From an uncultured Alphaproteobacteria bacterium (lineage in GTDB: Bacteria; Pseudomonadota; Alphaproteobacteria; Rhizobiales; Beijerinckiaceae), in assembly GCA_963841875.1 (NCBI GenBank), contig CAWJEI010000002.1, forward strand, positions 91,838 through 155,837: a stretch of DNA of 64,000 bases. The letters run 5' to 3'. A program made the position numbers and the translations under genes. The notes beneath the pieces are model-generated. The model was not told the origin of the DNA. It saw only the letters and a list, made by a program, of their open reading frames with translations, and did not search any database. Below, piece by piece: positions 19,050 to 61,513 of the stretch (the stretch's first letter is position 1; the number at the start of each line of letters is the position of its first letter).

Positions 19050-22000
19050 TCAATGAAAATTGCGCGCCTTTGGCGTCGCCGCGCGGGCTCTTTCGATCCT
19101 GCGCAGATCGGCGGAAATATCCTCGACCTTGCGGGCGATGAGATGAATGACGCCGGATTCCCGCTGCACGTCGCCGGTGACGGCGATGAGCCGCGCGCCG
19201 AGCACTTCGGCCCGCTGCTTCTCGAACAGTTTCGGCCAGACGATGACATTGGCGGCGCCGGTCTCGTCCTCGATGGTCATGAAGATCACGCCCTTGGCCG
19301 TGCCGGGGCGCTGGCGCATCAGCACCAGCCCCGCGACGGTCACGCGCGGCGTCAGCGGCGCATTGGAGCGCGACAGCGCCGCGCAGGACAAAATCCCTCT
19401 CTCCGCCAGCGCCATGCGCAAAAAACCCACCGGGTGGCCCTTCAGCGACAGCGACAAGGCGCGATAGTCCTCGGCGACCTCCTCGCCGGGCGGCATCGGC
19501 GGCAGTTTCGCGTCCGGCTCGATCGGCGCGAAAGCGAGGGCGCGCAGCAAGGGCAGATCGTCCTTGTCGCCGGCGCGGTTGAGGCCGGCGACAGCCCATA
19601 GCGCCTCGCGGCGCGTTAGGCCGAGGCTGGCAAAGGCGTCGGCGTGGGCCAGCCTCTCCAGCGCGGCGGGGGCAAGGCTGGTGCGCAGCCAGAGGTCGCG
19701 TACGGAATCATAGCCCGCGCCGCGACGCTCAACCAGAATGCGCATGTCGGCCTCGGCGGCGCCCTTGATCTGGCGAAAACCCAGCCGCAGCGCGCGCCGC
19801 CCCAGAATATCCTCCGTCATCAATTCATGACGCGGGTGCGTCGGCCCCAGGGCTTGCGCGGGCTCCAGCGTGCAGTCCCAGTCGGAGGCGTTGATGTCGA
19901 CCTCGCGCGCCTCGATCCCATGTTCGCGCGCGTCGCGCAAAATCTGCGCGGGCGCGTAAAAGCCCATGGGCTGGGAGTTCAGCAAGGCGCAGGCGAAGAC
20001 GTCCGGGTAGCGGCATTTCAGCCAGGCGGAGGCATAGACCAGCAGCGCGAAGGAAGCCGCGTGGCTCTCGGGAAAGCCATAGGAGCCAAAGCCCTCGATC
20101 TGCTTGAAGCAGCGCTCGGCGAATTCGGGCGCATAGCCGCGCGCGGCCATGCCGGAGATCATCTTGTCGCGAAATCCGCTCACCAGCCCCGCGCGCTTGA
20201 AGGTCGCCATGGCGCGGCGCAGTTGATCGGCCTCACCGGGGGAAAAACCCGCCGCGACGATGGCGATCTTCATCGCCTGTTCCTGAAACAGCGGCACGCC
20301 GAGAGTTCTTGCCGAGCACCTGCTCCAGTTCGGGCGAGGGATAGTCGACCTTCTCCTTGTTCATGCGTCGACGCAGATAGGGATGCACCATGTCGCCCTG
20401 AATGGGGCCCGGCCGCACGATCGCCACCTCGATCACGAGATCGTAGAAACATTGCGGCTTGAGGCGCGGCAGCATCGACATTTGCGCGCGGCTTTCGATC
20501 TGGAACACGCCCACCGTGTCGGCGCGCGAAATCATCGCATAGACGCTCGGATCTTCCGCCGGAATGGTCGAAAGGCGATGGCGGACGCCGTAATGCGCCG
20601 CCAGCAGGTCAAGGCCCTTGCGCAGGCAGGTGAGCATGCCGAGCGCCAGCACGTCGATCTTCAAAATGCCGAGCGCGTCGAGATCGTCCTTGTCCCAAAT
20701 GATGGTGGTGCGGCCCTCCATCGCGGCGGGGGCGAGGGGGACGACCTCGTCGAGGCGCGCGCGCGTAATGACGAAGCCGCCCGAATGCTGGGTGAGATGG
20801 CGTGGAAAGCCGGCGAGTTCCTGCGCCAGCGCCAGCGCCATGGAAAAGCGCGGTTCGGAAAGATCATAGCCCAGCCGCGTCAGGTCGGCGCGGCGTTCCT
20901 CCGCGTTCGAGCGTCCTCCGGCCATGGCCGAATGTCGCGCCAAAAAATCGTTGGAGAGGCCGAAGACCTTGCCGATCTCGCGCATCGCCGAGCGCGAGCG
21001 ATAGGTGACGACGGCGGCGGCGAGGCCGGAATGGTCGCGACCGAAACGCTGGTAGATATATTGGATGACCTCCTCGCGCCGCTCATGCTCGAAGTCCACG
21101 TCGATGTCGGGCGGTTCGTTCCGCGCCGCCGAGACGAAGCGCTCGAACAAAAGATCGTGCTTTGTCGGGTCGACCTCTGTCACGCCAAGACAAAAGCACA
21201 CCGCGCTATTGGCCGCCGAGCCGCGCCCCTGCGCGAGAATCCCGTGCGAATGCGCAAAGCGCACGATGTCGTGCACGGTGAGGAAATAAGCGGCGTAGTT
21301 CAGCTGCCCGATGAGCTCCAGTTCGTGCTCCAGCAGCTCCCGCACATGTTTGGGAACCCCTTGCGGATAGCGTTTTTTTGCGCCTTCGAAAGCAAAGGCC
21401 TCCAGCGCCGCCTGTTCGCTGTCAAAACCCTCGCGCAATTCGCTGGGATAGTCATAGGCGAGATCGGAAAGACGAAAGGCGAGGCGTTCCAGAAAGCGCG
21501 CGCTTTCGTCGACAGCCTCCGGCGCCTCGGCGAAGAGCCGGGCCATCTCTTCCGCGCTTTTGAGATGACGCTCGGCGTTGGCGGCGAGCAGGAAGCCGGC
21601 CTCCTCCAGCGTCACGCCTTCTCTTATGCAAGCGAGAGCGTCGGCGAGCGGGCGCCGCTCCGGAATGTGATAATGCGCGTCGTTCACGGCGATGAGCGGC
21701 AGGCCGAGCTTTTGCGCCTGTGCGATGCGCCGCCGCAGCTTCGCGCGCATGTCGGCGTCATAGAGCGCCGCAGCGGCGAGCCACAGCCTGTCCTTGAAGG
21801 CGGCATAGACCGCAGCCGGCGGCGCCGCATCGCCCAGCGCGATGAGCTGCTGGCCCTCGCCGAATTCAATGAGATCCTCGGCGACCAGCGCGCAGTCGCC
21901 CTTTTGCGCGCGCATATTGCCGCGCGTGAGCATGAGGCACAGGCGGCCATAGGCGGCGCGGTCCTTAGGATAGCAAAGCATGTCCGGAGTCTTGTCCGAA

Positions 22001-22236
22001 AAGACCAGCCGCGCGCCGACGGCGAGCTGGAATTGCTCGGGCGCGACGCCATGCGCGCGCAGATAGGAATAGGCCCGCACAACGCCCGCCACGGAATTGC
22101 GATCGGCGATCCCTAGGCCGCAATGACCGAGCTCCAGCGCCCGCGCCGCCATCTCCTCCGGATGCGAGGCGCCGCGCAGGAAGGAGAAATTGGTCGTCGC
22201 CGCGAGTTCGGCGTAGCGGGGCAGGGGGACAATCAC
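19050..22236 (-). CDS. dnaE2: Error-prone DNA polymerase DnaE2 (ImuC), interrupted by an apparent +1 frameshift near 20300-20315
   Basis: ORF 20233-22236 carries the PHP/DnaE2 N-terminus [24 protein letters not shown].... ORF 19050-20297 continues ...[30 protein letters not shown]... to the OB-fold C-terminus. The junction read on the minus strand, ggcaagAactctcggcgtgccgctgtttcaggaacag, shows one extra base between ...VLGK and [10 protein letters not shown]. Confidence 0.85.
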
Positions 22237-22261
22237 GGGGAGACTCTGGCCGCAGGTAAGT

Positions 22262-22276
22262 GTTCATGTATTGTTC
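22262..22276. promoter_or_regulatory. Alphaproteobacterial LexA (SOS) box GTTC-N7-GTTC upstream of dnaE2
   Basis: Sequence gttcATGTATTgttc lies 26 bp upstream of the dnaE2 start codon and matches the alphaproteobacterial LexA direct-repeat operator. Confidence 0.5.
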
Positions 22277-47277: not shown

Positions 47278-47708
47278 ATGCCTCCTCCTTGTTCCTTAAC
47301 TCCGCCGCCGTTTCACATGCTCCACCGTCAATGCGGCGACGTTAGGACAAAACTTGAGCCTTGGCGGGGCGCTTGGCGCGTGGTCATTCGTGCTTGCGGC
47401 TTGCTTGTGCAGCGCCTGTAAATCTGGCAAGAATGTCCCTTCATGAATGGTCAGCCATGCTGACCATTCGGCATGATGAAATTACATAAGGCACTGTAAT
47501 ATAAGTCTATGCTACGTTCGCCCAGCTTGGCGAGCGGGTGAGATGGAAGGCGCGCCGCCAGCGCGGGAGCCTTGGAACGGCTCTTGCGGAGCTTTCGACG
47601 CGCCATGTGACAAGGGCGACTGCAGGTCTGCCACGGAGGCCGCGGGAGGCGGGCGTCACCCTGCAATGGGCGCCACGCGAGACACGACTAGGGGCGAAGG
47701 AAAGAAAT

Positions 47709-50700
47709 ATGGCGCTCAACGAAGAACAGGAACATGCCGGCCCTCGCATGGGAGACGCTGATATGACCACGATCGACGGGCGCGACCCGCTCTTGCCGAA
47801 GGCTCAGGGCCTTTACGATCCCGCGAAGGAGCATGACTCCTGCGGCGTCGGCTTCGTCGCCAATCTGCACAACGCCCAGAGCCACGACATCGTGAAGATG
47901 GGTCTGCAGATTCTTCTGAATCTCGACCATCGCGGCGCGGTCGGCGCCGATCCCAAGCTTGGCGACGGCTGCGGCATTCTGGTTCAGATTCCGCACAAAT
48001 TTTTCGTCGAGGAAACGGCGAAGCTCGGCATCGCGCTGCCCGATTTCGGGCAATATGCGATCGGCCAGTTCTTCCTGCCGCGCGACGCCGACGTGCGCGC
48101 CAAGGCGCGCGCCTTTATCGAGGCGTCCGTGACGGCGGAAGGGCTCACCTTGCTTGGCTGGCGCGACCTGCCTATCGATTCAAGCGACCTTGGCGACGCG
48201 GTTCGCGCGGTCGAGCCGCATCACGCCCAGCTTTTCGTGGGACGTGGTCCTGAGGTGACGGATGACGCGGATTTCGAGCGCCGCCTCTATCTCGCGCGCA
48301 AGACGTCTTCCAACGAGATTTACGCGCTTGGACCGCAGGGCCGCGAGCATTATTCGGTCTCCTTCTCGTCGCGCACCATCGTCTACAAGGGCATGGTCCT
48401 GGTGAGCCAGCTTGGCGAATATTTCATCGATCTCAAGGACGAGCGGTTCATCTCGGCGCTGGCGCTTGTGCATCAGCGTTTCGCCACCAACACCTTCCCG
48501 TCATGGCGTCTCGCGCACCCCTACCGCTTCGTCGCGCACAACGGCGAGATCAACACGCTGCGCGGGAATCTGAACTGGATGGCGGCGCGTCAGGCGTCCG
48601 TCGCCTCGCCTCTGTTCGGCAAGGACATCAGCAAGCTCTGGCCGATCTCCTATGAGGGCCAGTCGGACACCGCCTGTTTCGACAATGCGCTGGAATTTCT
48701 GGTGCGCGGGGGCTATTCGCTCGCTCATGCCGTGATGATGCTCATTCCCGAGGCCTGGTCGGGCAATCCGCTCATGGACGAGCATCGCAAGGCCTTTTAC
48801 GAATATCATGCGGCGCTGATGGAGCCTTGGGACGGTCCGGCGGCTATGGCCTTCACCGATGGCCGCCAGATCGGCGCGACGCTGGATCGCAACGGACTGC
48901 GCCCCGCGCGCTATCTCGTCACCGAGGACGGACTTGTGGTGATGGCCTCCGAAATGGGCGTTCTGCCCATTCCGCAGGAAAAGATCGTCACGAAATGGCG
49001 TTTGCAACCGGGCAAGATGCTGCTGGTCGATCTTGAAAAGGGCCGTATCGTCTCCGACGACGAGATCAAATCCTCGCTGACTTCTTCGCATCCCTATCGC
49101 GAATGGCTGGCGCGCACGCAAATCGTGCTTGAGGATTTGAAGCCCGTGGAGCCGCGCGCGACGCGCACGGACGTCTCCCTGCTCGATCGCCAGCAGGCCT
49201 TCGGCTATACGCAGGAAGAACTCGACCTGCTCGTCTTCCCCATGGCCGTCACCGGCCAGGAAGCCGTCGGCTCGATGGGAACGGACACCCCGATCTCGCC
49301 GCTCTCCAGCAAGGAGAAGCTGCTCTACACCTATTTCAAGCAGAACTTCGCGCAGGTGACCAATCCGCCGATCGACCCGATCCGCGAAGAACTGGTTATG
49401 AGCCTGGTGTCCTTCATTGGCCCGCGTCCGAATATTCTCGACCACGATGGTTCGGCCAAGAAGAAGCGGCTGGAAGTGCGCCAGCCGATCCTCACCAGCG
49501 CCGACCTGGAGAAAATCCGCAGCATCGGCCATATCGAGGACAGTTTCGACACCAAGACGCTGGATTTCACCTATCCCGCCGAAAAGGGCGCGGAGGGACT
49601 GGCCAAGTCGCTGCAGCGGCTTTGCGAGCGCGCCGAAGAGGCGGTGAGCGGGCGCTACAACATCATAATCCTTTCCGACCGCATGGTGGGACCGGATCGC
49701 GTGCCCATCCCAGCACTGCTCGCCACCGCCGCCGTGCATCATCACCTGATCCGCAAGGGGCTGCGCACTTCCGTCGGCCTCGTCGTCGAAACCGGCGAAG
49801 CGCGCGAAGTGCATCACTTCGCCTGTCTCGCGGGCTATGGCGCCGAAGCGATCAATCCCTATCTCGTCTTCGAGACGCTCGCGGGCTCGGTCGAGCATTT
49901 CCCGGACGACGTGAATGCGGATACGGCGATCAAGCGTTATATCAAGGCGGTCGACAAGGGGCTGCTGAAAGTCATGTCCAAAATGGGCATTTCGACCTAT
50001 CAGTCCTATTGCGGCGGCCAGATGTTTGACGCCGTCGGCCTGTCTCAGGCCTTTGTGGACCAGTATTTCGCTGGCACCACCACGCGTGTCGAGGGCGTCG
50101 GCCTCGACGAGATCGCGCGCGAGACCGTGCGCCGGCATCGGCTGGCCTTTGGCGACGCGCCGGTCTATCGCGACGCGCTCGACGTCGGCGGCGACTACGC
50201 CTACCGCATTCGAGGCGAGGCCCATAGCTGGACGCCGCAAACGATTTCGCTGCTGCAACACGCCGTGCGCGGCAACGCCCGCGAACAGTATCGCGCCTTC
50301 GCGAAAATCCTGAACGAGCAGGATGAAAACCTGCTCAACCTGCGCGGCCTGTTCCGCATCAAGAACGCTGATGAAGACGGGCGCAAGCCCGTGCCGCTGG
50401 AGGAAGTCGAAGCGGCCAAGGACATCGTCAAGCGCTTCGCCACCGGCGCCATGTCCTATGGTTCGATATCGCGCGAGGCGCACACGACGCTCGCCATTGC
50501 GATGAACCGCATCGGCGGCAAGTCCAATACCGGCGAGGGCGGCGAGGAACCGGACCGCTTCAAGCCCGAGCCCAATGGCGACAGCAGGCGGTCGGCGATC
50601 AAGCAGGTGGCCTCGGGCCGCTTTGGCGTGACGACGGAATATCTCGTCAACGCTGACATGATCCAGATCAAGATGGCGCAGGGCGCCAAGCCTGGCGAAG

Positions 50701-52424
50701 GCGGCCAATTACCGGGCGACAAGGTCGACGCGGTGATCGCCAAGGTGCGCCATTCGACCCCGGGCGTCGGGCTGATCTCGCCGCCTCCGCATCACGACAT
50801 TTACTCAATCGAGGATCTCGCGCAGCTGATCTTCGATTTGAAGAACGTCAATCCGAAAGCCGACGTGTCGGTGAAGCTCGTTTCGGAAGTCGGCGTCGGC
50901 ACGGTCGCCACCGGCGTCTCGAAGGGCAGGGCGGATCACGTGACGATCTCGGGCTTCGAGGGCGGCACGGGCGCTTCGCCCCTGACCTCGATCAAGCACG
51001 CGGGCAGCCCTTGGGAGATCGGCCTCGCGGAGACGCATCAGACGCTCGTGCTCAACAATCTGCGCTCGCGCATCGCCGTGCAGGTCGACGGCGGCCTGCG
51101 CACCGGCCGCGACGTCGTTGTGGGAGCACTGCTCGGCGCCGATGAGTTCGGCTTCGCTACGGCTCCCTTGATCGCCGCTGGCTGCATCATGATGCGCAAG
51201 TGCCATCTCAACACCTGTCCGGTCGGCGTCGCGACGCAGGATCCGGTCCTGCGCACGCGCTTCGTTGGCCTGCCGGAGCACGTTATCAACTATTTCTTCT
51301 TCGTCGCCGAGGAAGTTCGCGAGTTGATGGCCGCGCTCGGCTATCGCAGCTTCGATGAAATGATCGGGCAGACACAGATGCTCGACAAGCAACGCGCCCT
51401 GAATCACTGGAAGGCGCAAGGGCTCGACTTCGCCAAGCTGTTCCACAAGCCGGCGGGTGAGGGTGGAGCCATCCGACACAGCCAGCGCCAGGATCACGGC
51501 CTCGACAAGGTTCTCGACAACAGCCTCATCGCCAAGGCGCGGGCGGCCATCGATCGCGGCGCCAAGGTGACCATCGACACGCCGATCCGCAATGTCGATC
51601 GCACGACCGGCGCCATGCTTTCCGGCGAGATCGCGCGCGTCTACGGACATGTGGGCCTGCCGGAGGACACGATCGACATAAGGGCGTCGGGCACGGCGGG
51701 CCAGAGCTTCGGCTCGTTTCTGGCGCGTGGCGTGACGCTGCGGCTGGAGGGAGAGGCGAACAACTATGTCGGCAAGGGCCTCTCGGGCGGCAAGATCATC
51801 ATCTATCCTTCGCGCGAGGCGAAGAAGATAACGCCGCATCAGTCGATGATCATCGGCAACACCGTGCTTTACGGCGCAATCGCCGGCGAGTGCTACTTCC
51901 GCGGCGTCGCGGGCGAACGCTTCGCCGTGCGCAACTCGGGAGCAATCGCGGTGGTCGAAGGCGTGGGCGACCATGGCTGCGAGTATATGACGGGCGGCGT
52001 GATCGTCGTGCTGGGCCAGACCGGGCGCAACTTCGCCGCCGGCATGTCGGGCGGCATCGCCTATGTGCTGGACGAGGACGACAGCTTCTCGTCGCGCTGC
52101 AACCTTGCGATGGTCGATCTGGAGCCCCTGTCCGAGGAAGAAACCGCGATGACGGAAACCTTCCATCAGTCCGGGGATCTTGAAACCCATGGCCGCGTCG
52201 ACGTCATGGGCGACATGACCCGTTTCGACGTGGAGCGCCTGCGTCAACTGATCAGCAATCACGCGCGATATACCGAGTCCTCAAGAGCGCGCGAGATCCT
52301 GGAGAACTGGGAAGCCTACAAGCCGAAGTTCCGCAAGGTCATGCCCGTGGAATACCGGCGCGCGCTGACCGAGCTTCTGGCCAAGGGCAAGCCCCCGCAA
52401 AAGCTGAAGGCGGCGGGCGAATAG
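47709..52424 (+). CDS. gltB: Glutamate synthase (NADPH) large subunit
   Basis: ~1570 aa with an N-terminal Ntn amidotransferase Cys (CGVGFVANL), FMN/Fe-S central domains and a C-terminal GXGXG-containing domain. Start chosen at the ATG at 47709, which has an SD aagga; the alternative start is 47763. Confidence 0.9.
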
Positions 52425-57734: not shown

Positions 57735-58578
57735 GTGAATTACCGCCACGCCTTTCACGCCGGCAATTTCGCGGACGTGTTCAAGCATGCGCTGCTGGCG
57801 CGGCTGCTCATCTATCTTGCGCGCAAGGAGACTCCCTTTCGCGTGATCGACACGCATGCGGGCGAGGGCGCTTACGACCTCGCCAGCGACGAGGCGGAGC
57901 GCACCGGAGAATGGCGCGGCGGCGTCGGGCGGCTTGGCGGCTTGGCGGGAATGGACCCACGGCAAGCCGAGCTGCTGAAGCCCTATCTCGATTGCGTGGG
58001 GCCCTTCGTTGACGGGCGCCCCGCGCTCTATCCCGGCTCGCCGCTGTTGACGCAAAGGCTCATGCGCGCCAACGACCGCGCGATCTTATGCGAGTTGCGG
58101 GAGGACGCCTTTGACGCGCTGAGGCGGCGATTTGCCCACGACAAGCGCATCAAGACACTCCATCTCGACGGCTATACCGGCGCCGGCGCCTTCGTGCCGC
58201 CCGTCGAGCGGCGCGGACTTGTCCTGATTGATCCGCCGTTCGAGCGCACTGACGAGTTTCGCGCGATGTTCGACGCTTTTCTCGCCGCCTATCGCAAATG
58301 GCCGACCGGGATCTACGCGCTGTGGCATCCGGTCAAGGACGCCGCGCAGGCGAGGAGCTTTTTCGAAGCCTTTCGCCGCGAAGGGCTGCGGCGGGTATTG
58401 CGTCTTGAGCTATCCGTCGGCGGGAGCCGGCGAGCGCCTGAATCGCACCGGCCTCGTCGTGGTCAATCCGCCCTTCGTCTTCGAGGAAGAGGCGCGCGCG
58501 CTGCTGCCATTCCTGACCGAGCGCATGGCGCAGGGTCAGGGCGCGGGCTTTGTGGTGGAGGAACTGGCGGGGGAGTGA
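57735..58578 (+). CDS. rlmJ: 23S rRNA (adenine2030-N6)-methyltransferase RlmJ, with an apparent +1 frameshift near 58415-58430
   Basis: N-terminus MNYRHAFHAGNFADVFKH (RlmJ signature) and DPPF motif (LVLIDPPFE). The C-terminal ~50 aa (...LNRTGLVVVNPPFVFEEEARALLPFL...) is in the +1 frame of ORF 58228-58578. Confidence 0.8.
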
Positions 58579-58690
58579 GAATGGGATGCTTGCAGTTGCG
58601 ATATTTGGATTGAAGTGTCAATGTAGCAGTTGATGGTATTGCGACCTTGAATGTTAAGTTTCCCTCTCAAGTAAATGGCGAGAGTAGAAG

Positions 58691-59859
58691 ATGGTTGACG
58701 GCACTGATTGGTTTGACGACTACGCTGAAGATAGCGATGAAATTGATATTGATGAATATGAGATCACGGCCACACCAAATGATTTTAATGTCCTGACATT
58801 GTTTAGTTTCGTGGAGTTCTGGAGCTGTAAGAATCCCAGGATTCCAGAGGAACTTTGTTTGGGACCACGTGCGAGCTTCAAAGCTCATAGAATCGTTAAT
58901 TCTTGGTATTCCAGTGCCTCAGCTCTTTCTCTATGAGCAGGCGAGAAATAAGTTTTTGGTAATTGATGGCCAGCAGAGACTAATGTCCATATACTATTTT
59001 ATCAAAAAGAGATTCCCGAAGCGAGAGCGCCGTGTAGAGTTGAGGGCGCTTTTTGACAAGGAAGGAACAATTCCCGATAAAATACTGTTTGATGATACGT
59101 ATTTTGATGACTTCAAATTGAAACTGACGGAAAATTTACCGAATAGGAAAAATAAATTTTATGGATTGAATTATGCAACTCTTGGAGAGTACAAAACACA
59201 GCTTGATCTGCGTCCTATTCGTAACGTTGTGGTAAAACAGAACAGTCCATCTGACGACGATTCATCAATGTACGAGGTCTTTAATAGGCTTAATACGGGC
59301 GGTGTTAATTTACGACCCCAAGAAATTCGGTACTAGCATGTACCATTCTAGTTTCTATGATATGCTGTATAGAGTGAATTTAAATAAAAGATGGCGGGAG
59401 CTAACAAATTCTAGTGATCCTGATATCCATATGAAAGATATTGAGGTTTTGCTTCGCGGTCTCGCGATGCTGATAACCGGGGATAGTTATTCTCCTTCTT
59501 TGGTTCGATTTCTAAACCAGTTTTCGAAAAAGTGCGAAAATCACAATGCGGAAAAAAACAGGTACTTGGAAGGATTGTTTAACTCCTTTTTTAACGCCTG
59601 CTCAAATCTTCCACGTGATGTTTTTATAAATGCGAAAAATAATCGTTTTAATATTGCTCTATTTGAGGCCGTTTTCACTGCCTCGTGTTCTGTAGCATTT
59701 AAGGAATTGCGACCTGTTAAAGGGAAGGTCTCTCTGCAGAAAGTAAAATCTCTTGAGGTAGATAAGAGTTTTGTCGCCGCAGCGACTCAAGGCACAACTC
59801 GAACCATAAACGTAACACAACGCCTAGAGAGGGCAAAAAAGTTGGTTAACCCATTGTAG
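58691..59859 (+). CDS. DUF262 (ParB/Srx-like nuclease, GmrSD-N-like) protein without DUF1524/HNH domain, with two apparent +1 frameshifts (~58805-58835, ~59328-59336); low-GC islet
   Basis: Three successive frames give ...ITATPNDFNVLTLFSFVE..., then ...SGAVRIPGFQRNFVWDHVRASKLIESLILGIPVPQLFLYEQARNKFLVIDGQQRLMSIYYF... (IPxFQR and DGQQR are the DUF262 signatures), then ...QEIR|TSMYHSSFYDMLYRVNLNKRW... and a helical C-terminal region. No His-Me/DUF1524 domain. Confidence 0.65.
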
Positions 59860-59869
59860 GAGAAGTCGC

Positions 59870-60427
59870 GTGGTGGGGACTGTCGTTGACAATCTATATG
59901 CGGATTTTAGCGCGATTGTTCAGATACTCGACGCAAGCTCCGAGGTTTCATTAAGAAGTTCTGTTGAAGCTAATTTTCGCAAAGCTCTATTATTGTGTGC
60001 GGCAAGCTTCTTCGAGCACAAACTCTCAACAAGTATTTTAGATTTTTGTCACGAATCCTCAAAAGGTAATACATTAATTCCTTCGCTTATTCGCATCAAG
60101 GCTGTTAATAGGCAATATCATACCTGGTTTAGCTGGGAGTCTAGTAATGTTAACCAATTCATTGGCTTGTTTGGAGATGACTTTAAGAAATTCATGAGTG
60201 GATACATCAAGGACAACAATCTTGAAGTCCCAATTAAGGATTTTATGGAGATTGGCAGTAGCAGAAATCGCTTGGTTCATCAAGATTTTGGAAGTTTTAC
60301 ACTCGAAAAAACGTCATCTGAAATATATAACACATATGAATCTGCTCTATTATTTGTTGATAGTGTTCCTGTAGCTCTCAGAGCATGCTCTGCGCAGTGT
60401 TTGCAATACGAAGATTTACCTAATTGA
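59870..60427 (+). CDS. HEPN-like protein (R-x4-H motif), partner of the DUF262 gene; low-GC
   Basis: 185-aa mostly helical protein with ...GSSRNRLVHQDFG... (Rx4H, HEPN-type RNase motif). Own GTG start at 59870 preceded by a strong SD (gtAGGAGAagtcgcGTG). In-frame stops upstream prove it is a separate gene. HEPN assignment is by motif only. Confidence 0.45.
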   Translation: MVGTVVDNLYADFSAIVQILDASSEVSLRSSVEANFRKALLLCAASFFEHKLSTSILDFCHESSKGNTLIPSLIRIKAVNRQYHTWFSWESSNVNQFIGLFGDDFKKFMSGYIKDNNLEVPIKDFMEIGSSRNRLVHQDFGSFTLEKTSSEIYNTYESALLFVDSVPVALRACSAQCLQYEDLPN

Positions 60428-60532
60428 GCCTAGCCCTCCCACCATGCTCCGTTGCGGCAATCTCTACACCAAGGCTTTGGCTCGTCTTCTGGTGACCCTG
60501 ATGCATGCAAGGCGTTTATCACGCCAAAGTGG

Positions 60533-60739
60533 TCACAGCCCGTGCCGGGGCTGGAACACCCAATAGATAAGCCCGACCAGAGCGCAGGCTCCTCCAAGCC
60601 AGAAAACCACATTGCCCGTGTATTCGTCCCTCATGTTGACGCCATAAAGGCTGATCACGAGCCCGATGATCGTCGCGTAAAGAGGCTTCTGATTGCGTTC
60701 GGGCTGCTGCGGCTTTTTCGCGCCCATTTCCATTGGCAT
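60533..60739 (-). CDS. Hypothetical small single-TM protein
   Basis: 68-aa ORF (MPMEMGAKKPQQPERNQKPLYATIIGLVISLYGVNMRDEYTGNVVFWLGGACALVGLIYWVFQ...) at the right edge of the low-GC islet. Weak evidence. Confidence 0.3.
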   Translation of the reverse strand: MPMEMGAKKPQQPERNQKPLYATIIGLVISLYGVNMRDEYTGNVVFWLGGACALVGLIYWVFQPRHGL

Positions 60740-60916
60740 GGCTTGCTCACTCTCGTTTCAGCTGATCGGCTGTCAGCGACGGCCCTGCCGCAAAGTTAGC
60801 GCATCGGCGGCGCAGCGCCAGTGGGGCGCCCCGATTGGCAAGTTTTCCTGCGGGCGGCCGCGCCTTTCGCTATAAGCGCCATTCGGATTTCCCCGGCTCT
60901 TAAGGACGCCCCGCCC

Positions 60917-61513
60917 ATGCTCGTTCTACGCTATTCTCCCGCATCCCCCTACGCGCGCAAAGTGCGCATCGCCGCCGACTTATTGGGGCTGACGGATCGC
61001 ATCGAGATCGCGGGAGCCGATCTTTCCAACCCCGCCGACAGCATTCGCGCGCAAAATCCGCTCGGCAAAATCCCCGCGCTTGTGCTGGAGGACGGCTCGT
61101 CGCTCTACGACAGCCGCGTCATCGCTGAATATCTGGATCATCTCGCTGGCGGGGGAAGGCTCCTTTCCGCCGATCCCGCGAAGCGTTTCGCGGCGCTGCG
61201 CCTGCAGGCGCTGGGCGACGGGATAAACGACGCCGCACTGTTGATCCGCTATGAGGCTACCTCGCGGCCCGAGGCCAAGCGTTTTTCTGATTGGACGGAG
61301 CTGCAACAGGGCAAGATCGAGCGTTCCCTCGCCGCGCTTGAAGCCGCACCCCCATCAGGTCCAATTGACATAGGCCATATCGCGGTCGCGACGGCGCTTG
61401 GCTATCTGGATTTGCGCTTCGACGGCGCTTGGCGCGCGACCCATCCGAAACTCGTCGCCTGGCTCGACGCCTTTTCCAGCGCCACGCCGTCTTTCGAGGC
61501 GACGAAGGCCTGA
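60917..61513 (+). CDS. Glutathione S-transferase family protein
   Basis: Start at the internal ATG 60917 (MLVLRYSPASPYARKVRIAADLLGL…). N-terminal thioredoxin-like GST domain (...NPLGKIPALVLEDG...) plus a C-terminal helical domain. Confidence 0.75.
   Translation: MLVLRYSPASPYARKVRIAADLLGLTDRIEIAGADLSNPADSIRAQNPLGKIPALVLEDGSSLYDSRVIAEYLDHLAGGGRLLSADPAKRFAALRLQALGDGINDAALLIRYEATSRPEAKRFSDWTELQQGKIERSLAALEAAPPSGPIDIGHIAVATALGYLDLRFDGAWRATHPKLVAWLDAFSSATPSFEATKA

Follow-up and report, generated by a model that had tools for sequence, protein, structure and literature searches.

The subject of this article is a short islet of low guanine-plus-cytosine (GC) content within a 64,000-nucleotide stretch of DNA (the window) from an uncultured Alphaproteobacteria bacterium of the Beijerinckiaceae (assembly GCA_963841875.1, contig CAWJEI010000002.1, positions 91,838 to 155,837 of the forward strand), and the two genes that it carries, gene A for a DUF262 protein and gene B for a HEPN protein, which I read as a divergent member of the PD-T4-2 type of anti-phage module. 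Profiled in 300-nt steps along the stretch, GC stays at 0.62-0.68 to position 58649, falls to 0.36-0.44 over 58650-60449 and is 0.56-0.65 from 60450, the low-GC part beginning just past the rlmJ stop codon (TGA, 58576-58578); the neighbours on both sides encode RNase T2, RsmJ, a small transmembrane protein, GST, a BON-LysM protein and an outer membrane protein. All coordinates are gathered in the table, and the loci and contigs compared are cited by L numbers where they have to be told apart.

In the sequence as given, gene A is spread over three frames (open reading frames (ORFs) 58691-58936, 58869-59336 and 59302-59859), and a reading of 388 residues is restored by dropping one T at 58817/58818 and one base at 59329-59331, both lesions being +1 insertions relative to four homologous genes. 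The corrected protein matches GmrSD_N in Pfam (PF03235, 4e-31, residues 36-217) and no further Pfam family at E ≤ 1, so that DUF1524 was not found and residues 218-388 are without a Pfam match, and NCBIfam gave a sub-threshold DGQHR match for protein A and none for protein B. Among the PADLOC models, protein A is matched over its full length by NsnA (2e-60, residues 17-386) and also by PD-T4-2_A (2e-37, 127 bits, profile covered to 360/363). The C-terminal ~170 residues are helical in an AlphaFold2 model, with a predicted local distance difference test score (pLDDT) of 80-95 there, and a sequence search of the PDB with profiles of the A and B families gave no matches. More than 100 intact homologues of 385-390 residues are 68-74% identical to protein A and come from Bradyrhizobium, Mesorhizobium, Xanthobacter, Sphingomonas, Bryobacteraceae and a Parcubacteria genome, and all 120 among the matches listed are 383-430 residues long. 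The corrected protein keeps 141 of the 141 family-invariant residues and has 69.8% similarity to the family, the members of which show 70.2% among themselves; neither the corrected protein nor any of its three fragments has an exact match in the protein collection.

Gene B starts 10 nt past the gene A stop on the same strand, and its product belongs to HEPN_RiboL-PSP in Pfam (PF18735, 2.9e-15, 57.1 bits against a cut-off of 28.4). Across 33-36 aligned homologues the RNxxxH residues R132, N133 and H137 do not vary, and neither do the four of the RQYHTWF motif or E49 and K38; the AlphaFold model (pLDDT 93.2) is all-helical, in keeping with a HEPN fold, and places RNRLVH at the end of the long helix 119-137. 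Since 187 word-indexed homologues and 733 representatives of 50%-identity clusters (E ≤ 1e-3) exist, gene B is not a chance ORF, and nearly all of these homologues are stand-alone proteins of ~175-190 residues. In one protein of 403 residues, P0330, the HEPN domain takes up the N-terminal part (residues 10-173) and ~230 more residues come after it; this protein may be a fusion. A preliminary description, made from the letters alone, had proposed a low-GC islet between rlmJ and gst, a DUF262 protein lacking DUF1524 that needed two +1 corrections, and a separate downstream HEPN gene with an Rx4H motif and its own AGGAGA and GTG, and the measured GC profile, the Pfam matches and the alignment to the four homologous genes bear out each of these points.

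Table. Features of the islet and its flanks, in positions of the window.
Feature	Position	Strand	Details
Left flank: rlmJ (RsmJ family)	57735..58578	+	Split here by one extra base in GGCGGGAGCCGG, ~58420-58427
Low-GC islet	58579..60430		~1.85 kb; GC 0.36-0.44 vs ~0.64 in the flanks; between the rlmJ stop and the small transmembrane protein gene / gst
Gene A: DUF262 (ParB-like GmrSD_N) protein, PD-T4-2_A / NsnA-like	58691..59859	+	388 amino acids once two 1-nt insertions are removed
Predicted ParB-like DUF262 NTPase domain	58796..59343	+	Gene A residues 36-217
Frameshift site 1	58817..58818	+	Extra T: TT vs T in homologues (aligned to L001, L002, L005, L007)
IPGFQRNFVW	58833-58862	+	Gene A motif
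DGQQRL	58965-58982	+	Gene A motif
Frameshift site 2	59326..59334	+	ATTCGGTACTAGC vs family ATT CGN ACN AGC; at the family-invariant Arg213 codon
Helical C-terminal domain of gene A	59344..59856	+	Residues 218-388; counterpart of NsnA ParBDB; without DUF1524
Shine-Dalgarno-like AGGAGA	59858..59863	+	Overlaps the gene A stop; 6 nt ahead of the gene B GTG; read from sequence
Gene B: RiboL-PSP-type HEPN protein, predicted RNase effector	59870..60427	+	185 amino acids, GTG start
RQYHTWF, second invariant motif	60110-60130	+	R81, Y83, H84, T85 in gene B
RNRLVH (Rx4H)	60263-60280	+	R132, N133, H137 in gene B
Right flank: conserved 68-amino-acid small membrane protein gene	60533..60739	-	tblastn matches in L010 and L012 directly after rlmJ
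Right flank: gst	~60914-61513	+	Beyond the small membrane protein gene

The two genes travel together well beyond this locus. A GmrSD_N gene of ~390 codons lies 4-13 nt upstream of the B gene in Pararhodospirillum oryzae (L001), Nostoc (L002), Methylocaldum (L005) and Bradyrhizobium (L007), and in 80 metagenomic loci collected with protein A as query the HEPN gene follows 10-25 nt past A wherever the downstream sequence suffices, the exceptions being L095, L158 and L161. The adjacent, same-strand layout of A then B is present in more than 60 loci, no A-B fusion occurs among the 120 and 150 listed homologues of the two proteins, and a PF03235 plus PF18735 pair is also found on an IncF E. coli plasmid and on an Exiguobacterium plasmid, so the pair is a conserved operon. 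Its GC is below that of its flanks in 28/28 loci, by a mean of 13 points, and protein A is ~70% identical across phyla while protein B goes down to ~50% in this subfamily. As for the three exceptions, L095 (5356-6690) has an insertion sequence (IS) with a 444-residue DDE transposase inside the 5' end of the HEPN gene and an intact DUF262 gene upstream, L158 has a solo DUF262 gene with a GST gene directly after it, and in L161 gene A is truncated. Among mobile elements, a DUF262 and PF18735 pair is the main cargo of the 3948-bp E. coli plasmid pLR-27_3 (L168), stands after a DNA methyltransferase gene and beside a repressor in Akkermansia phage Chambord (L171:1327-4137), and lies between tail-fibre and tail genes in the P2-like Klebsiella phage ST16-OXA48phi5.4 (L172:2357-4260).

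The module is of a known kind, because DUF262 plus a PF18735 HEPN protein is the architecture of PD-T4-2, a system of E. coli ECOR65 given as "DUF262, HEPN" (Vassallo et al., 2022; PMC9519451). HHpred in the same work assigned PD-T4-2A to PF03235 (99.7%) and PD-T4-2B to PF18735 (97.8%), the cloned operon protects MG1655 from T4, and its deletion from ECOR65 restores T4 plaquing (PMC9519451). The preliminary description was thus right to read a two-gene defence module here; where it called the pairing uncharacterised and could name no characterised representative it was mistaken, PD-T4-2 having been shown to act against T4 in its native host as well as in K-12 (PMC9519451). The association is older still, as the 2013 survey of HEPN families listed RiboL-PSP-HEPN in an "operon with ParB" in its Table 1 (Anantharaman et al.; PMC3710099). 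Compared with ECOR65 PD-T4-2 through domain descriptions and PADLOC models, the window module is to be classed as a divergent PD-T4-2-type system: both consist of two adjacent same-strand genes in the order A then B, with a DUF262/PF03235 protein of ~350-390 residues without DUF1524 and a PF18735 HEPN protein of ~170-190 residues, and both are small mobile cargo. They differ in that the PADLOC model PD-T4-2_B does not recognise the window's protein B, in that protein A scores far below a close homologue, and in the host, here a GC-rich alphaproteobacterium of a methanotroph family rather than E. coli. PD-T4-2_B is itself narrow, giving 4.4e-4 for the partner on the E. coli plasmid and no score for four other PF18735 partners.

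Other known systems also come close to the module. Menshen NsnA (Millman, 2022; PMC12065111) has the ParB-DUF262 plus ParBDB layout of gene A, hence the full-length profile match, but Menshen also needs the NsnB ABC ATPase and the NsnC inPIN-nuclease effector, whereas gene A is followed directly by a single HEPN gene with no ATPase transducer. ParBDB was defined as the DNA-binding domain downstream of ParB-DUF262 in NsnA, SspE, GmrSD and DndB (PMC12065111), and DUF262 with ParBDB acts as the sensor in SspE, GmrSD and NsnA (PMC12065111, PMC10952713). GmrSD, BrxU and SspE likewise have a DUF262 NTPase domain with DGQQR followed by a helical DNA-binding middle domain, and sense modified DNA; in them a DUF1524 His-Me DNase forms the C-terminal part of one and the same polypeptide, whereas the effector here would be a separate HEPN protein of RNase type. 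Gene B, above the Pfam gathering score, is a member of the RiboL-PSP-HEPN family (PMC3710099), the founding members of which are fused to an L-PSP endoribonuclease domain, while gene B stands alone. A 2023 review and the 2025 Menshen paper (PMC12065111) treat PD-T4-2 as a DUF262 system without DUF1524 and of uncharacterised mechanism.

Relatives were scanned for synteny with the GST protein as query and one genome per species, giving 80 loci, the closest of which (70-81% identity) are from Methylocystis and uncultured Methylocystaceae. The order RNase T2 - rlmJ - (68-residue membrane protein) - gst is kept in ~40 of them (Methylocystaceae and Bosea), neither the DUF262 nor the HEPN gene was found in any of these ~40 syntenic relatives, and 1954 bp separate the rlmJ stop from the membrane-protein stop in the window, as against 25-40 bp in L010 and L012. 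Because relatives keep the rlmJ-gst synteny without it, the islet is a true insertion, horizontally acquired. Seven sister assemblies from this population have it at the identical junction, and the order of the small membrane protein gene and gst is the same in L173 and in L175-L177. The module is fixed in a single Methylocystaceae population at species level, and neighbouring species lack it. No integrase, tRNA, Rfam family or credible flanking direct or inverted repeat was found with the islet. The rlmJ-gst site appears to be a recombination hotspot that takes up small cargo of the defence or toxin-antitoxin sort, because what it holds differs between related species: a PIN/VapC-like and Phd-like pair in L008 (5018-5832), an Mrr-like restriction ORF with a third-position GC (GC3) of 0.50 in L027 (2277-3173), ORFs without an assigned family in L013 (4346-5753) and L035 (5318-5890), and an OYE flavin oxidoreductase in several other relatives.

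As to the breaks of gene A in the sequence as given, seven sister assemblies were reached through the 90%-identity cluster of protein B, with the same locus at 99.2-100% identity and the same junctions. The window's extra bases at 58427 (rlmJ) and 58817 (site 1) are absent from L173 and L178, both of which cover them, and at rlmJ 58418-58427 the window reads GGGAGCCGG and the sister assemblies GGGAGCGG, other species having one base fewer. Site 2, compared at window 59326-59340, L173:3449-3470, L175:426-450 and L178:4043-4070, gives four sequences in four assemblies, L173 reading ATTGGTACTAGC (in frame, R to G), L175 reading ATTCTTGGGACCAGC (in frame, R to LG through a TTG insertion) and L178 being garbled. 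Each assembly with a "contig_" name has private indels of its own: in L173 the RNase T2 gene and rlmJ have one each (in rlmJ a -1 within a C-run at 58019) and 2 bp are inserted in gene A, and L178 has ~20, with A in four pieces and B truncated (rlmJ, at 280 residues, is intact there); the contigs taken to be short-read assemblies show no frameshift in the parts that they cover. Elsewhere in the window, dnaE2 (error-prone DNA polymerase III alpha, minus strand) is split by a +1 insertion at 20233-20360, the Pfam domain DNA_pol3_finger being divided between profile positions 1-110 in ORF 20236-22263 and 98-165 in ORF 19053-20360, and long ORFs such as 47505-52424 are unbroken. A GC3 frame-plot over the whole window was too noisy to be used alone, and of seven suspected ORF pairs Pfam confirmed dnaE2 only. 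All four frameshifts found in the 64 kb are +1 insertions, and such uniformity of the window-private indels indicates a technical bias. A metagenome scan for a copy of gene A from the same strain returned a best match of 79% identity, which has no bearing on the frameshifts.

Because the sister assemblies are free of the window's extra bases at two of the three sites and have private indels of their own instead, the frameshifts are probably artefacts, as the preliminary description had suspected; from these sequence comparisons I think it likely that those in gene A and rlmJ are assembly-specific consensus errors concentrated in the AT-rich islet. If they are assembly errors, the module is probably intact in the organism. 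The variety at codon 213 could reflect a motif that long reads resolve poorly (possibly because it is modified), or a true hot spot of mutation. A further candidate, programmed +1 frameshifting at site 1, was rejected because the window and L105, a contig with a frameshift at the same junction that is described below, have no slippery or rare-codon context in common.

Taken together, I hold with good confidence that the islet carries an acquired, PD-T4-2-type two-gene anti-phage module whose frameshifts are most likely consensus errors, the mechanism itself being inferred. In the scheme that I propose, gene A would encode a ParB-superfamily DUF262 NTPase (FQR, DGQQR) with a helical, ParBDB-like DNA-binding domain and no nuclease domain, and gene B, translationally close-coupled to it, a small RiboL-PSP HEPN protein with an intact RNxxxH motif predicted to be catalytic. 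The two proteins would form a complex, in which A would survey DNA and recognise that of an invading phage, possibly hypermodified; nucleotide binding or hydrolysis at the DGQQR site would then change the conformation of A and so license B, probably a dimer with a composite Rx4H site, to cut RNA, and the cleavage would halt phage gene expression as direct immunity or abortive infection. If SspE, GmrSD, BrxU and the role proposed for NsnA are a guide, A would be a DNA sensor and NTP-driven switch and B an RNase effector under its control, and abortive infection in which DNA is sensed and RNA cleaved is a plausible outcome.

Several observations weigh against this interpretation. No later mechanistic paper on PD-T4-2 was found, and the sensing, the complex and the RNA target are all my own deductions. 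On the side of protein B, PADLOC gave no family at E ≤ 1, PD-T4-2_B included, and an hhalign comparison of the window's HEPN subfamily profile with the HEPN partners of two E. coli plasmids was not significant and aligned only the RNxxxH stretch; homology of the B component therefore rests on the shared Pfam family and not on direct similarity. The model of protein A as a whole is poor (pLDDT 67), and its best structural match, BrxU, is weak at that model quality. As regards the frameshifts, three of the four in the window fall within 0.9 kb at the left edge of the islet, the invariant Arg213 is missing from every sister assembly that covers codon 213 (none of the three readable alleles has it unless the window's extra T is simply deleted), and the window's frameshifts could be real private mutations.

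This last thought leads to genuine decay of a PD-T4-2-type module: both +1 frameshifts would be real, gene A would have become a pseudogene only recently, and the HEPN gene would be left on its own, with the defence no longer working. The lesions are present in the sequence as given, site 2 lies outside any homopolymer, the neighbouring rlmJ and the distant dnaE2 are split too, and no intact copy of gene A with at least 90% identity exists in the protein collection. A broken A gene beside an intact B gene is also known from elsewhere: in the complete genome of Methylocaldum sp. GT1BB (L003:4750-6000) the DUF262 gene has deletions of 85 bp and 218 bp relative to L005 (1-1555), which has an intact 390-codon DUF262 gene and an adjoining HEPN protein identical to that of L003, and two JGI contigs from different samples that are 99.9% identical to each other (L105:780-800 and L106:881-901) have a +1 frameshift in the DUF262 gene and an intact HEPN gene. 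The gene A of these contigs has 71% amino acid identity to that of the window, and their frameshift falls at the F-x-E|S-G-A-V junction of site 1, within ~4 nt, a coincidence for which a rough estimate of chance is a few percent. Against decay stand the absence of the site-1 and rlmJ insertions from sister assemblies, each of which has different private indels, the lack of other signs of decay in a corrected protein with all its family-invariant residues, and the technical bias suggested by indels that are all +1, and I regard decay as unlikely. A version in which loss is asymmetric and strikes DUF262 only was dropped in view of the IS-disrupted HEPN gene in L095 and the solo DUF262 gene in L158. 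A more speculative proposal, which I would rate as improbable, is that these modules form a distinct PD-T4-2 subtype, invisible to PADLOC, with a conserved sensor and a fast-evolving HEPN protein, in which a costly sensor is under recurrent, site-focused inactivation; it is raised because the alleles at codon 213 differ (frameshift, R to G, R to LG), the L105/L106 lesion sits at the site-1 junction and the Methylocaldum gene has partial deletions. Provided that the lesions are real, their positions would point to functional hot spots, or to an on/off switch, in a DNA-sensing NTPase with an RNase under its control.

The remaining alternatives accept an intact module and differ in what it would do. 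In an addiction module resembling toxin-antitoxin systems, one partner, the HEPN RNase or the DUF262 protein, would be a constitutive toxin that the other neutralises; the HEPN gene is intact beside a broken DUF262 gene in L003, L105 and L106, the DUF262 gene is intact where the HEPN gene carries an IS (L095) or is missing (L158), and such solo or broken-partner occurrences mean that neither partner is lethal by itself, so that a classical system of this sort is unlikely, and given also that the homologous PD-T4-2 architecture confers phage defence from its native promoter with no toxicity reported, I consider the idea very improbable. A split GmrSD-type type IV restriction enzyme acting on modified DNA, with gene B as a DNase in place of DUF1524, would agree with a GmrSD_N domain in the N-terminal half of gene A, with BrxU as the best structural match (of a poor model) and with the selection of PD-T4-2 on T4, a phage with hypermodified DNA. 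Pfam found no DUF1524 or other His-Me domain in gene A, and I know of no citable precedent for a DNase in the Rx4H HEPN family. This family, to which gene B belongs, is one of metal-independent RNases (PMC3710099), and the split enzyme is accordingly a remote prospect. Least credible of all is a Menshen system with gene A as its NsnA sensor, even though NsnA is the best PADLOC match of gene A, ahead of PD-T4-2_A, since no gene for an NsnB-type ABC ATPase/DUF3696 protein or for NsnC lies among the islet neighbours; moreover, the NsnA model scored higher than PD-T4-2_A with all the tested DUF262 proteins that accompany a HEPN gene, the E. coli ones included, and because it wins for each of them the match reflects a broad DUF262 plus ParBDB model and not Menshen. 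The further observations that the preliminary description had named as decisive went the same way as its proposal, the second protein being HEPN, the two genes being unfused among the listed homologues and relatives lacking the islet.

What is already known, therefore, is this kind of module and its anti-T4 phenotype, and what is added here is the breadth of the family and a gap in its annotation, the module of the window being an ordinary, divergent PD-T4-2-like member. PD-T4-2-like DUF262 and HEPN modules are widespread beyond enterobacteria, in methanotroph relatives, cyanobacteria, candidate phyla, plasmids and prophages, and the PADLOC model for the B component misses this clade. The combination of a very conserved sensor and a variable HEPN protein makes these modules a convenient system in which to study how a ParB-type NTPase switches on an RNase, and the window itself offers a lesson in quality control, as its frameshifts are probably assembly errors.

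Two smaller observations concern the history of such loci. In L163 (208-288) and L164 (222-302) a C-terminal fragment of a DUF262 gene (profile positions 360-386) lies directly upstream of a complete DUF262-HEPN pair, and may be what an earlier copy or a cassette exchange left behind. Upstream of gst, a T-run at 60888 reads TTT in the window and in L177, a contig of a Methylocystis metagenome-assembled genome, and TT in L173, L175, L176 and L178, and this difference is likely to be a real intergenic polymorphism.

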